From: Candidatus Methanomethylophilaceae archaeon | GTDB lineage: Archaea; Thermoplasmatota; Thermoplasmata; Methanomassiliicoccales; Methanomethylophilaceae | DNA length: 64,000 nucleotides | NCBI GenBank assembly: GCA_944320495.1 | Contig: CALUHR010000013.1 | Location: 384,001-448,000 of the forward strand | Direction: 5' to 3' | Notes under the pieces: model-generated | The model's database searches: none | What the model was told of the DNA's origin: nothing | The model's input: only the letters and a program-made list of their open reading frames with translations | Translations under genes and position numbers: made by a program | Part shown: piece by piece, positions 6,709 through 29,895 of the stretch | Layout of the letters: the number at the start of each line of letters is the position of its first letter | Position numbering within the stretch: position 1 is the stretch's first letter

Positions 6709-6824
6709 GAGGGCGGACCCCCTCCAAACCCCTTACTCAAACCCCTTCCTTTCTATCGCGCGCCTGCGGACGGGAGCCATAATATATCGCGACTGACTGC
6801 CCCATCCAACCAGAGGCTGAAAGA

Positions 6825-7124
6825 ATGTTTTGCCCATCATGCGGTTCGATGATGTTCCCCCGCGAGGGGAGATACGTCTGCAGCAAGTGCGGTGCCGAGA
6901 AGGATCTGGGCTCCAAGCCGGAGATCATCGTCACCGATTCCAAGAACAGGATGACCACGGTCATCGAGAGCGACACGGCCACCCTCCCGAAGACCCGCAT
7001 CGCCTGTCCCGAGTGCGGCCACACCGAGGCCTTCTTCGTGATCAGGCAGACCAGGGCCGCGGATGAGCCTGAGACCAGGATCTACCGCTGCTGCAAGTGC
7101 AACCACACCTGGAGGGAGTACTGA
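6825..7124 (+). CDS. tfs: Transcription factor S (TFS, RpoM family)
   Basis: Two Zn ribbons and the QTRAADEPET acidic hairpin. Confidence 0.95.
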   Translation: MFCPSCGSMMFPREGRYVCSKCGAEKDLGSKPEIIVTDSKNRMTTVIESDTATLPKTRIACPECGHTEAFFVIRQTRAADEPETRIYRCCKCNHTWREY

Positions 7125-7126
7125 GG

Positions 7127-7864
7127 ATGTTCAAGGCCGATCTCAAGTCGGACACCCTGAAAGGGCTCGTCAACATCATCTCCACCCTGATCGATGAGGT
7201 CAAGTTCACCATCGGTCCGGATGGCATGACCCTGAAGGCCGTGGACGCGGCCCACGTCGCCATGATTGAGATGGAGGTCGGCAAGGACGCCTTCGAATCC
7301 TATGAGGCGGACTCCTGCGAGATCGGGCTCGATCTCGACAAGGTGAAGGGGGTCCTGAAGTTGGCCTCGTCCGGCGACATCGTCAGCATGGAGCAGGACG
7401 ACACCCACGGGAGGCTCGTGTTCAAGGTCGGAAACATCACCAGGCGCATGAACCTGGTGGACACCGCCACGATGAACGACCCGAAGGTCCCCCAGCTCTC
7501 GCTCGCCACCAGCATCAGCCTCATGGTGGACGAGCTGCAGAAAGGTATCCGCGCGGCCGACACCATCTCCGACCACATCACCCTCAGGGCGGGGCCGGAC
7601 TTCTTCGAGCTGTCCTGCGAGGGCGACACCGACTCCGTGAGCCTCAGGCTCGAGGGCAGCTCCCTCCTGGGCATCGAGGCCGCCGAGGAGGTCAGGAGCA
7701 TGTTCCCCCTGGACTACTTCCAGAACATCACCAAGGCCATACCGGCGGGGACCGCGGTCACCGTCGAGCTGGACAGCGACTACCCCGTCAAGCTCGTGTT
7801 CGCGCTCGCCGACGGGGCGGCGAAGGTGAGGTACCTCCTCGCGCCTAGGATCGAGAGCGATTGA
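7127..7864 (+). CDS. pcn: DNA polymerase sliding clamp PCNA
   Basis: LKAVDAAHVAMI, EIGLDL, DYPVKL and YLLAPRIE motifs. Confidence 0.97.
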   Translation: MFKADLKSDTLKGLVNIISTLIDEVKFTIGPDGMTLKAVDAAHVAMIEMEVGKDAFESYEADSCEIGLDLDKVKGVLKLASSGDIVSMEQDDTHGRLVFKVGNITRRMNLVDTATMNDPKVPQLSLATSISLMVDELQKGIRAADTISDHITLRAGPDFFELSCEGDTDSVSLRLEGSSLLGIEAAEEVRSMFPLDYFQNITKAIPAGTAVTVELDSDYPVKLVFALADGAAKVRYLLAPRIESD

Positions 7865-7866
7865 AT

Positions 7867-8697
7867 ATGTCAGCAGACGTCGAGCATCTGAAGAAGATCG
7901 CGGACAGGCTCAGGGTGGACGTCATCGAGATGACGTCCGAGGCCGGATCCGGCCACCCCGGAGGGTCCCTGTCGTCGGCGGACCTCATGGCCGTCCTCTA
8001 CTTCGGGGGATGCATGAGGCACGACCCGGAGAACCCCCAGTGGGAGGACAGGGACCGCTTCGTCCTGTCCAAGGGCCACGTCGCCCCCGTCCTCTACGCC
8101 GCCCTCGCCGAGTCCGGATACTTCCCCACCGAGGAGCTGCTCACGCTCCGCAAGCTGGGCTCCAGGCTGCAGGGCCACCCGGTCCGCGGCAAGGTGCCCG
8201 GCGTCGAGATGTCCACCGGATCGCTGGGGCAGGGCCTCAGCATGGCCTGCGGCATCGCTCTGGCCGGGAAGATGGACGGGAAGGACTACAGGACCTTCTG
8301 CCTCCTCGGGGACGGGGAGCTTCAGGAGGGCCAGAACTGGGAGGCGGCGATGTTCGCCCGCCAGTACGGGCTGTCCAGGCTCATCGCCATCGTCGACCGC
8401 AACCACCTCCAGATCACCGGGGACACCGAGGAGGCCGTCGGCCTCAACCCGCTGCCCGAGAAGTGGAAGGCGTTCGGATGGAACGTCATCGTCATCGACG
8501 GCCACGACATCCAGATGATCATCGATGCGATCGAGAGGGCGTCCGAACCCTCCGACAGGCCCACTGCCATCATAATGGAGACCGTCAAGGGAAAGGGGGT
8601 GTCCTTCATGGAGAACAACGTCGCGTTCCACGGCAAGGCCGCCAATGAGGAGGAGCGCGAGATTGCAATCATGGAGCTCACGGGGGGATCCGAATGA
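7867..8697 (+). CDS. tktA: Transketolase, N-terminal subunit
   Basis: [25 protein letters not shown], and the GDGELQEG ThDP motif. Confidence 0.96.
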
Positions 8698-17822: not shown

Positions 17823-17899
17823 GCCCGCGTGGGGTAGCTTGGATATCCTGTGAGATTGCGGATCTCTTGACCCGGGTTCGAATCCCGGCGCGGGCACCA
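17823..17899 (+). tRNA. tRNA-Arg(GCG)
   Basis: Acceptor GCCCGCG/CGCGGGC, loop TTGCGGA, GGTTCGAATCC T-arm, encoded CCA. Confidence 0.95.
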
Positions 17900-28179: not shown

Positions 28180-29226
28180 TCAGCAGATTCTGGGCACGGG
28201 GTCGCCCGCGGGCGGCTCCAGGATGCGCCTGCCACCGACCTCGGTCCTGAGGACGACCCTCTCCGGTCCGTCCACGGCATGGCCGATGATGGCCGCATCC
28301 TTGCCCTCGGGGGTGGACCTGATGGCCTTGAGCACCTCGTCCGCCATCTCCGGCACGACGCCAATCACGCATTTCCCTTCGTTGCCAATCGCCAGCGGGT
28401 CTATTCCCAGCAGTTCGCATGCGTTGACGACACCGTCCCTCAGAGGGATGGATGGGTAGTCGATCTCCATGCCGACGTGGGACTTGGAGCACCACTCGTT
28501 GAGGGTGTTCGCCAGACCTCCCCTGGTCGGGTCCTTCATGGCCACTATGCCCCCCGCGGTCAGTCCCTTGGCGATCATCTTGTTCAGCGGTGCAACGTCG
28601 CTCTGGACCTCGCTGTCGAAGCCGTAGCCCTCGCGGAAGGAGAGCAGCGCGATGCCGTGGTCGCCGACGTATCCGGACACGATGATGGCGTCGCCGGGCC
28701 TGACGTTGGAGTCGGTGCACCAGCGGTGGTCCACCTTCCTGTACTCCGCGGCCTTGGCCAGGTCGCTGTCCAGAAGGTCGGATCTCTTTCCGACGGCGGC
28801 GGTGGACATGACCATCTGCTCCACTGCGCCTGCCTCCACGACCTTGGTGTCGCCGGTCGCTATGGGCACTCCCGCGCCCTCGGCGGTCCTGCCCATGGAG
28901 TCCATGACCCTGTCGACGATGTCGACGTCCAGCCCCTCCTCCATTATGACGGAGCAGGCCAGAGCGAGGGGGGTGGCCCCCATGACGGATATGTCGTTCA
29001 CGGTGCCAGCCACGGAGATCTTGCCGATGTCCCCTCCGGGGAAGAACAGCGGCTTCACGGTGTGCCCGTCGATGGTGAAGACGATGTCGTCCACGACGGC
29101 GGAGTCGTCCATGGAGTCGAGGGGGACCTCGGCGTCCATCTTCGGGAAGTGCTTCGTGATGTGGTCGGAGAGGAACTGCTGCATGAGCTCCCCGCCGGCT
29201 CCGTGGTTGAGAATCACCTTGGGCAT
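28180..29226 (-). CDS. hypE: Hydrogenase maturation protein HypE
   Basis: HGAGG, FFPGGDIG, GDTKVV, MKDPTRGG, ANEG-like NEGK, C-terminal PRIC. Confidence 0.96.
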   Translation of the reverse strand: MPKVILNHGAGGELMQQFLSDHITKHFPKMDAEVPLDSMDDSAVVDDIVFTIDGHTVKPLFFPGGDIGKISVAGTVNDISVMGATPLALACSVIMEEGLDVDIVDRVMDSMGRTAEGAGVPIATGDTKVVEAGAVEQMVMSTAAVGKRSDLLDSDLAKAAEYRKVDHRWCTDSNVRPGDAIIVSGYVGDHGIALLSFREGYGFDSEVQSDVAPLNKMIAKGLTAGGIVAMKDPTRGGLANTLNEWCSKSHVGMEIDYPSIPLRDGVVNACELLGIDPLAIGNEGKCVIGVVPEMADEVLKAIRSTPEGKDAAIIGHAVDGPERVVLRTEVGGRRILEPPAGDPVPRIC

Positions 29227-29316
29227 GGGACGGTGGATTCGGGAGACGGCATATACTGGTTTCCCAGGGGACCTTGAGGCAATCCGTTAATTATGTGGTA
29301 GATAATCGAGACGGCG

Positions 29317-29388
29317 GGCCCTGTGGGGTAGCGGATATCCCGTCAGATTTCGGCACTGACAATCCGGGTTCGATTCCCGGCAGGGCCG
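29317..29388 (+). tRNA. tRNA-Arg(TCG), structurally atypical
   Basis: GGCCCTG/CAGGGCC acceptor, loop TTTCGGC, canonical T-arm, A20 present. It has an A31-A39 mismatch and G15-U48. CCA is not encoded. Confidence 0.85.
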
Positions 29389-29397
29389 CCTGTTTCT

Positions 29398-29895
29398 TCA
29401 TTCGCCGGTGTACTTGCCGACGGTCTTGCAGTGGGCGAGCACGTGCCCGTCCATGGCGAAGTACAGGTCGTTGAGCCTGAAGCCGCTGGGCAGTCCGAGC
29501 TCGGTGTCGAGTGCGTAGACCTTCAGGGTGTACCTATGCATCCCGTTGGGCGGGGCCATGCCGCCGTATCCGGTGGCCTGCTCCCTCGTCAGTCCTCCGA
29601 GCGCGCTGAACCAGCTGTTGGAGCCCTCGGTGAATCCGGCGCCGGTGCGGGTGGCCCCCTCGGCGACCTCCGTCTCCTTGAGATCGCAGATGAGCCAGTG
29701 GACCCAGAGGAACCCGGCTGCGGAGACGGCGTCGTAGTCGTCGAGGATGACGGCGAAGCTCTTCGTGCCCTCGGGGGCGTCCTCGATCCTGAACCCGGGG
29801 GAGATCCCGGGCATGCCGTTGTGGTCGGCGGAGCCCTTGCATCCGTACTCGTTGCCGAACCATCCGTCCCTGATGGCGCTGCAGACGACCCTCAT
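29398..29895 (-). CDS. YbhB/YbcL (PEBP) family protein
   Basis: DDYDA...WVHWLI, EGSNSW, YGGMAPP, HRYTLKVYALD. Confidence 0.92.
   Translation of the reverse strand: MRVVCSAIRDGWFGNEYGCKGSADHNGMPGISPGFRIEDAPEGTKSFAVILDDYDAVSAAGFLWVHWLICDLKETEVAEGATRTGAGFTEGSNSWFSALGGLTREQATGYGGMAPPNGMHRYTLKVYALDTELGLPSGFRLNDLYFAMDGHVLAHCKTVGKYTGE

Follow-up and report, generated by a model that had tools for sequence, protein, structure and literature searches.

How can an organism that ends genes at the codon CGA keep a transfer RNA (tRNA) that is cognate to CGA? This question is raised by a tRNA-Arg(UCG) gene at 29317-29388 (+) in the 64,000-nucleotide stretch analysed here (the window), which covers positions 384,001 to 448,000 of contig CALUHR010000013.1 (assembly GCA_944320495.1) of a Candidatus Methanomethylophilaceae archaeon. 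Positions without a genome label refer to the window, G000 denotes the genome that holds it, and other G-numbers denote the relatives that were compared. In the genus of G000, a Methanoprimaticola-like group of Methanomethylophilaceae that includes 'Ca. Methanoprimaticola sp. MG2' and many gut metagenome-assembled genomes, about a fifth of the genes appear to end at CGA. We find that the tRNA is under purifying selection and carries an anticodon arm anomaly in every genome of the genus in which it was located. The account that we favour, with slightly better than even confidence, is that a functional tRNA-Arg(UCG) is kept in an attenuated form, which would lose to the release factor aRF1 at gene ends and would read programmed CGA sites.

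Results and Discussion

The genome G000 comprises 1.77 Mb in 14 contigs with a GC content of 62%. Within its stop-to-stop open reading frames (ORFs) with a coding signature, interior CGA is nearly absent (6-9 per decile versus about 75 for CGG, which is used at a low level), and the CGA count in 242,375 central coding codons is 0. In 198 of 1042 ORFs, the GC content at third codon positions (GC3), which is 0.86-0.89 up to the first CGA of the 3' half, drops to 0.59 directly behind this codon, and no such drop follows CGG, AGA, CAA or CGT. Additionally, several G000 genes have CGA at the exact codon at which the orthologs of sister genera carry a standard stop. The 145 terminal CGAs of G000 show a strong context: the -1 base is C or G in 89%, +4 is U in 62% versus 29% after TGA, and +5 is G or C in 86%; CGATC and CGATG make up 28% and 27%, versus 13% and 7% for TGATC and TGATG. 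GC3 periodicity on 20-kb samples of the relatives was noisy at lower GC, and homology-based counts, restricted to the best frame, were used for them. The codon is rare family-wide, with 16 CGA in 25,835 codons of non-aRF1 genes from ten sister samples.

The tRNA-Arg(UCG) gene is 72 nucleotides (nt) long and ends with the discriminator G73 at 29388. It scores 55.7 bits with Rfam RF00005 (gathering score 29), comparable to the 53.8-68.8 bits of the four further tRNAs in the window, and ARAGORN, which finds five tRNAs in the window, places it as tRNA-Arg(tcg) at 29317-29390 (+). The acceptor stem reads GGCCCUG/CAGGGCC and the T arm CCGGG-UUCGAUU-CCCGG. The anticodon TCG (positions 34-36; 29350-29352, +) is cognate to CGA. 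Arginyl-tRNA synthetase recognises A20, C35 and G36 or U36, and A20 in the D loop AGCGGAUA, together with C35 and G36, points to an Arg identity of this tRNA. The deviation lies in the anticodon arm TCAGA-TTTCGGC-ACTGA (29343-29359, +), where the four pairs 27-30:40-43 form and A31 (29347) faces A39 (29355) in the stem UCAGA/ACUGA. The arm hence departs from the canonical form, a 5-bp stem closed by 31:39 with a 7-nt loop that contains U33. The loop UUUCGGC has in addition U32 (29348) and C38 (29354), which are confined to G000 and the almost identical G018, the other orthologs all having C32/A38.

The sequence-only reading of the window had already described the fold, the anticodon with A20, C35 and G36, the A31-A39 mismatch, U48 in the place facing G15, and a variable region CAAT that differs from TGAC in tRNA-Arg(GCG), and ARAGORN, Rfam and our own reading agree with it on all these points; the U32/C38 loop was not among the features that it listed. 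Indeed, among the 45 intron-less tRNAs of G000, which include tRNA-Arg with the anticodons UCU, CCU, CCG, GCG and UCG, this one is unique in having a 31:39 mismatch. The variable loop occupies 29360-29363 (+; 4 nt) with U48 at 29363, and it is a sub-lineage trait shared, as far as U48 is concerned, by G000, G018, G009, G013, G010 and G012. The remark that this tRNA alone lacks an encoded CCA stands for the five window tRNAs and fails genome-wide: about 19 of the 45 tRNAs, among them tRNA-Arg(UCU) and tRNA-Arg(CCG), have none, and the missing CCA is therefore ordinary. Here CCT follows G73, and the 3' trailer CCTGTTTCTTC (29389-29399, +) contains a T-rich stretch that could be a candidate archaeal terminator. 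Upstream, a TATA-like box TTAATTAT (29287-29294, +), judged by eye, lies about 23-30 nt before the mature 5' end.

Orthologs of the tRNA were gathered by BLAST, pattern and synteny searches from 30 genomes of the genus, three of them complete. All 30 have a non-canonical anticodon arm, in one of two forms. In 23 genomes no pair forms between bases 31 and 39, which are A·A in 10, C·A in 12 and U·C in one. The remaining seven (G008, G015, G007, G166, G019, G168 and one contig of the mixed bin G005) have the loop CCUCGAC, in which C33 replaces the near-universal U33; here 31:39 is paired and 27:43 is mismatched. Outside the genus, 36 of 36 tRNA-Arg(UCG) have a paired 31:39 (U-A, C-G or U·G) and U33, in a loop that is CUUCGGA or CUUCGAA. 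This comparison set was drawn from genera g10, g11, g14, g15, g16 and g19, family f4 and four further Methanomethylophilaceae, and it spans at least seven other genera of the family plus a second family. The anomaly of the anticodon arm is therefore clade-specific, and it coincides with the clade that shows the CGA anomaly. The same does not hold for U48 and the missing CCA, which the earlier reading had taken as signs of weakening: both are found in relatives in which CGA means Arg. U48 recurs in the sister genus g16 (G091, variable loop TAAT), where CGA serves a conserved Arg, and roughly half the orthologs encode CCA, both within the genus and among sister genera. Mismatches at 27:43 are common in the tRNA-Arg(UCG) of sister genera.

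Is this a gene in decay, as the sequence-only reading had considered? The pairing count, made on 16 distinct tRNA-Arg(UCG) sequences of the genus, gives 100% pairing for the acceptor helix, the T helix and the pairs 27-30:40-43, and 0 of 16 for 31:39. Compensatory double changes occur at six pairs, and stem covariation is also seen within the C33 group (G019 versus G008). By eye, an A/T-rich TATA-like box is found 23-32 nt upstream in all orthologs, with the remaining upstream region diverging. The Rfam scores of the genus (46.7-56.5 bits) overlap with those of the sisters (47.5-55.9 bits), and the gene is single-copy in each complete genome. Minimum free energy folding of the naked tRNAs lets the GC-rich genus and sister tRNAs alike misfold off the cloverleaf. 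Scattered loss of pairing across helices, patchy presence and promoter loss, the marks of a pseudogene, are not seen among the sequences and genomes compared. Because the helices stay paired with compensatory changes, the box is conserved and the gene is present in every genus genome examined, we reject decay and conclude that the tRNA is under purifying selection with a maintained, clade-specific anomaly of its arm.

A second suggestion, that the tRNA is modified to read only CGG, turns out to be unneeded. The tRNA-Arg(CCG) that the sequence-only reading had thought worth searching for is found at G000:C5:127659-127734. In its canonical form, with the stem-loop GGGGC-CUCCGGA-GCCUC, this tRNA is present in 43 of 46 genus genomes and in 24 of 24 high-quality ones, so that CGG can be decoded without tRNA-Arg(UCG).

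The presence of tRNA-Arg(UCG) had also been regarded as the main argument against a complete reassignment of CGA. We explain it instead by conserved in-frame CGA codons: the tRNA would be there because the CGAs at codon 78 of aRF1 and at the gmhA-gmhB junction need decoding. In the aRF1 gene (G000:C2:85936-87165, -; = L052:1-1233), codon 78 lies 16 residues past the NIKS motif at an Arg that is conserved family-wide, and the reading frame runs straight through the CGA. The codon is CGA in 36 of 36 aligned genus genes and, as the sole CGA of the gene, in each of the 36 named records whose identity is 82.2% or higher; one aRF1 copy within the mixed bin G005 has AAG at codon 78. Its context NCT-CGA-CTN is invariant across the genus, while the flanking synonymous sites vary freely and only 5 of 93 fourfold-degenerate sites of aRF1 are invariant genus-wide. 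Ten sister genera have AGG, CGT, CGC or AGA at this codon. Compared with the terminal CGAs, U-CGA-CU carries the minority base at -1, +4 and +5. As for G005, this bin, contaminated to 8%, seems to combine two Methanomethylophilaceae (L111, L192; contigs C189, C255 and C262): it holds the aRF1 with AAG78, which has CGA at codon 25, a second partial aRF1, two tRNA-Arg(CCG) and the C33-type tRNA-Arg(UCG).

G000 was also screened for CGA codons with a coding signal on both sides, and the matches were checked with Pfam. Nearly all interior-looking CGAs proved to be gene ends followed by a same-frame neighbour, the exceptions being aRF1 and the gmhA-CGA-gmhB junction (G000:C13:193618-194718, -; = L062; CGA at C13:194143). 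At the junction, the CGA follows a SIS domain and precedes HAD motif I by five codons, and the stretch from the CGA to that motif contains no start codon. The CGA is shared by G120; in the sister G062 the two genes are fused, with AAG at this place, and in G054 they are separate. On this sequence pattern, the junction is a candidate read-through fusion. Conserved in-frame terminator codons of the kind that a suppressor tRNA would serve hence exist genus-wide in aRF1, and in G000 and G120 at gmhA-gmhB.

Three other candidates from this search were set aside. A CGA near dcd sits upstream of the start codon and is not interior. The CGA of a flavodoxin-like gene (G000:C8:55685; L149), in GKTI-x-PFCT, is species-specific, with AGG in G004, and may reflect a truncation. 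For a membrane-protein case (G000:C5:178733; L150), where GAA-CGA-CTG precedes two predicted helices, no homolog was found in five genomes. Separately, a wHTH/TPR-like gene beside aRF1 (L105 ~6719-7787 in G015; L106 ~6764-7901 in G007; both -) has a conserved in-frame CGA (..EDIK-CGA-LTDG..) in these two genomes, with the protein conserved on both sides; the G000 homolog has TCG at that codon.

What, then, would the tRNA compete with? Each genome has one eRF1_2 match above the cut-off, i.e. a single aRF1, and we found no extra aRF1 paralog devoted to CGA, where the weaker matches below the cut-off were taken as putative Pelota and left unchecked. An alignment against ten sister genera gives only D17, V250 and I270 as genus-diagnostic aRF1 residues and reveals no change in the decoding motifs NIKS and YxCxxxF. 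In YxCxxxF, the Tyr is followed by Arg (Y-R-C-D-S) throughout the genus and all sister genera; having lined up the motifs by eye, we tentatively place this Arg at the position of L123 in yeast eRF1. For yeast, low-level termination by eRF1/eRF3 at CGA, where the factor contends with tRNA, has been described (Wada and Ito 2019, PMC7379694); it is suppressed by a tRNA(UCG) that matches perfectly and enhanced by the eRF1 variants L123R or L123F (PMC7379694). Furthermore, U33 is described as essential for the common architecture of elongator tRNAs, with eukaryotic initiators and the Candida CUG tRNA-Ser as exceptions (PMC5041475). Because aRF1 is single and nearly unchanged, because of the yeast precedent and because of the importance of U33, the tRNA could plausibly be the main determinant of the outcome at CGA, with no new factor needed.

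From these data we infer that the arm changes weaken decoding, that the CGA sites of aRF1 and gmhA-gmhB are read by tRNA-Arg(UCG), and that there is a feedback. In the mechanism that we propose, the single aRF1 would take CGA at gene ends, with a preference for C/G-CGA-U. These CGA stops would be overridden by a cognate tRNA of full strength, and the genus would therefore keep the arm crippled, either via a broken 31:39 (in G000 A·A plus U32/C38) or via C33 in place of U33. The crippled arm would lower the competitiveness of the tRNA in the A site, with the effect that aRF1 would win at CGA-U and that U-CGA-CU would stay leaky. At the same time the tRNA could not be lost, because a few genes need CGA as Arg. 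The CGA of Arg78 in aRF1, in its anti-terminator context U-CGA-CU, would establish a negative feedback of the prfB kind: much aRF1 would give a truncated product, and little aRF1 would allow read-through to full-length aRF1. The gmhA-CGA-gmhB junction would be a second site in need of tRNA-Arg(UCG). The view of the sequence-only reading that a weakened tRNA lets a release factor win at CGA remains the best one, with the arm anomaly being confined to the CGA-stop clade and, as we describe now, one close neighbour of it.

Several observations weigh against this account. The near relative G186 (L189, L237-L240) has an aRF1 with 82% identity and all three genus-diagnostic residues as well as an A31·A39 tRNA-Arg(UCG), but it ends none of about 65 genes at CGA; its sole in-gene CGA is codon 11 of aRF1, where codon 78 is AGA. 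The mismatch is therefore not strictly tied to the use of CGA as a terminator. G186 may be an intermediate in which the tRNA changed first, or a reversal. The sister genera, too, carry 27:43 mismatches, and the C33 group pairs 31:39, which means that the two defects differ and that their equivalence is an assumption. In-frame CGA is moreover not private to the aRF1 of the genus. Among the aRF1 genes of sister genera (loci L112-L120, L123 and L194-L236), each of the 44 non-genus records contains one CGA or more, at positions 11, 25, 53, 78 and others. In the ten sister samples, aRF1 has 11 CGA in 4,086 codons, or 2.7 per 1000 versus 0.6 per 1000 in neighbouring genes, and in 6 of the 10 samples aRF1 holds the only CGA. 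Since non-genus aRF1 genes also carry it, the aRF1 CGA may be older than the code change and not tailored to it. There is no conserved RNA structure 3' of the aRF1 CGA (15 predicted pairs, 0 covarying), and the gmhA-gmhB context C-CGA-GC is nearer to the terminator consensus than the aRF1 site. Four non-genus records with CGA78 as sole CGA (L213, L217, L226 and L232) were considered as a second CGA-stop lineage; they have canonical tRNAs, and the idea was dropped.

Could the tRNA decode at normal strength, its arm being a neutral quirk? Termination would then be set by aRF1 (D17, V250, I270), the ribosome or some other factor, the tRNA would simply compete at each CGA, and CGA would be leaky everywhere. 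G186, with its mismatch and without CGA terminators, fits this view, as do the three aRF1 substitutions and the 27:43 mismatches that sister genera tolerate. We nevertheless think it unlikely. Two distinct anomalies of the same arm are found in one genus and in 0 of 36 relatives, and about one protein in five would be extended if the cognate tRNA were fully competent. Additionally, U33 is near-universal in elongator tRNAs, and of the known exceptions, eukaryotic initiators and the Candida CUG tRNA-Ser, the latter is itself tied to a code change (PMC5041475).

More doubtful is the idea of a relic on its way out, in which the tRNA would have lost its job, the arm oddities and U48 would be early decay, and the aRF1 CGA would be read by, for example, a near-cognate tRNA-Arg(CCG). 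The type of mismatch does vary between A·A, C·A and U·C, as for a freely drifting position, G000 adds the oddities U32/C38 and U48, and tRNA-Arg(CCG) is widely present. Against this, all 30 genus genomes retain the tRNA over an aRF1 divergence down to 82%, and the signs of selection given above (fully paired helices with compensatory changes, a retained promoter box, Rfam scores equal to those of the sisters) are not those of a relic. In the 23 genomes without the 31:39 pair there are 0 reversions, though one transition would suffice. The stem of the proposed substitute is canonical with 5 bp, unlike that of the form for which a reading of NNA has been proposed (PMC13092985).

Quite improbable, in our judgement, is mRNA editing of terminal CGA to UGA by a C-to-U editor specific for C/G-CGA-U, with the tRNA as an ordinary decoder of the few CGAs left unedited and the odd arm being unrelated. 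The strong terminal context at -1 and +4 would suit such an enzyme, and the read-through candidates indeed carry other bases at +4. However, 38% of the terminal CGAs have no U at +4, and non-consensus CGA is essentially absent from genes as well (0 in the 242,375 codons counted), which editing alone would not require; the conserved aRF1 CGA and the clade-specific tRNA changes would be left unexplained. Least credible is a restricted reading, in which a wobble modification or an enlarged 9-nt loop would direct the tRNA to CGG only or to another signal, never to CGA, for although CGG is used at a low level, all good genomes have the dedicated canonical tRNA-Arg(CCG), the conserved in-frame CGAs at Arg positions need a CGA reader, and no sequence feature suggesting another anticodon register was found.

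Our preferred account, that of an attenuated tRNA that is kept in competition with aRF1, can be widened, and we offer the wider form tentatively, as an idea that we rate somewhat below even. In a cellular genetic code, a sense codon would have been turned into a stop by a weakened and retained tRNA, building on a latent CGA reading by an unchanged aRF1. The tRNA would act as a built-in suppressor for the aRF1 feedback and for GmhA-GmhB isoforms, and G186 would be a living codon-capture intermediate.

The surroundings of the gene in the window are as follows. A divergent AIR-synthase-related gene (28180-29226, -; Pfam AIRS/AIRS_C) lies upstream; its orthologs adjoin tRNA-Arg(UCG) in G008, G015, G007 and G166, and it served as the syntenic anchor for locating variant tRNAs that sequence searches had missed. 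Downstream follows a convergent PEBP-family gene (29398-29895, -) with a TGA stop. The tRNA-Arg(GCG) used for comparison (17823-17899, +), with the variable loop TGAC, reads CGU and CGC. A U27·U43 mismatch tops its anticodon stem, and its 31:39 is paired normally.

Conclusion

In summary, tRNA-Arg(UCG) of these archaea is a conserved tRNA with an arm anomaly that is maintained across the genus, and it may be the partner that mainly decides the fate of CGA. It offers a testable mechanism by which a sense-to-stop change could arise without lethality, namely a contest between a release factor and a weakened cognate tRNA. We know of no established sense-to-stop change outside organelles, and a search of the literature library available yielded no publication that ties Methanomassiliicoccales or Methanoprimaticola to a CGA stop or an odd tRNA-Arg. 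There are practical consequences as well: standard gene callers misannotate about a fifth of the genes in these common human and animal gut methanogens, and the presence of tRNA-Arg(UCG) would mislead tRNA-based code predictors into treating CGA as a sense codon.

The proposed mechanism mirrors its closest known counterpart, the short-stem tRNA-Trp that makes UGA a sense codon. Such tRNA-Trp(CCA) that have an anticodon stem of 4 bp are known from Blastocrithidia and Condylostoma, and 4-bp-stem tRNAs also from bacteria (Fakih et al. 2026, PMC13092985, and work on Blastocrithidia and Condylostoma cited there). In G000 the stem is likewise cut to four consecutive pairs (27-30:40-43), and in both systems a clade-specific change of one stem pair outside the anticodon would tip the contest between tRNA and release factor and accompany a code change. 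The tRNA-Trp, however, loses 27:43, and its C34 gains the near-cognate UGA (stop to sense; definition in PMC13092985), whereas here 31:39 is lost or C33 is present, U34 is cognate, and the proposed effect is a loss of strength (sense to stop). The pair 27:43 is also lacking here only in the C33 subgroup, and in some sister genera. The C33 form additionally recalls the Candida tRNA-Ser(CAG) with G33, one of very few elongators without U33, which is tied to the reassignment of CUG from Leu to Ser (cited in Grosjean and Westhof 2016, PMC5041475). In Candida, the amino-acid identity changes along with G33 (sense to sense), whereas C33 here belongs to an Arg tRNA that keeps A20, C35 and G36 and whose codon became a terminator.

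The proposed contest at CGA between a poorly decoding Arg tRNA and a release factor of the eRF1/aRF1 family has its likeness in the yeast eRF1/eRF3 system (PMC7379694). There, CGA is rare and read by inosine, and termination at it is a weak side reaction, whereas here CGA is apparently a regular terminator and the altered tRNA has a cognate U34. For the feedback, the bacterial prfB gene is the obvious model: RF2 regulates its own synthesis at an in-frame UGA via a +1 frameshift, stimulated by a Shine-Dalgarno element. In both cases the gene of the factor carries its stop codon in frame, and completion requires that the factor loses the contest. Unlike prfB, aRF1 would need no +1 frameshift; we propose plain cognate read-through, with the local context U-CGA-CU and no conserved structure. 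For an archaeal release factor, autoregulation based on read-through would, to our knowledge, be proposed here for the first time. In organellar sense-to-stop changes the cognate tRNA is, as far as we know, absent. Changes of this type concern AGA/AGG in vertebrate mitochondria, UCA in Scenedesmus and UUA in thraustochytrids (NCBI tables 2, 22 and 23). For two CGA-free vent archaea, a CGA stop has been suspected and the cognate tRNA was reported as not found (Melnykov 2026, bioRxiv 10.64898/2026.04.02.715157). Unlike these archaea, the genus described here retains the altered tRNA in every genome, together with conserved in-frame CGA sites.

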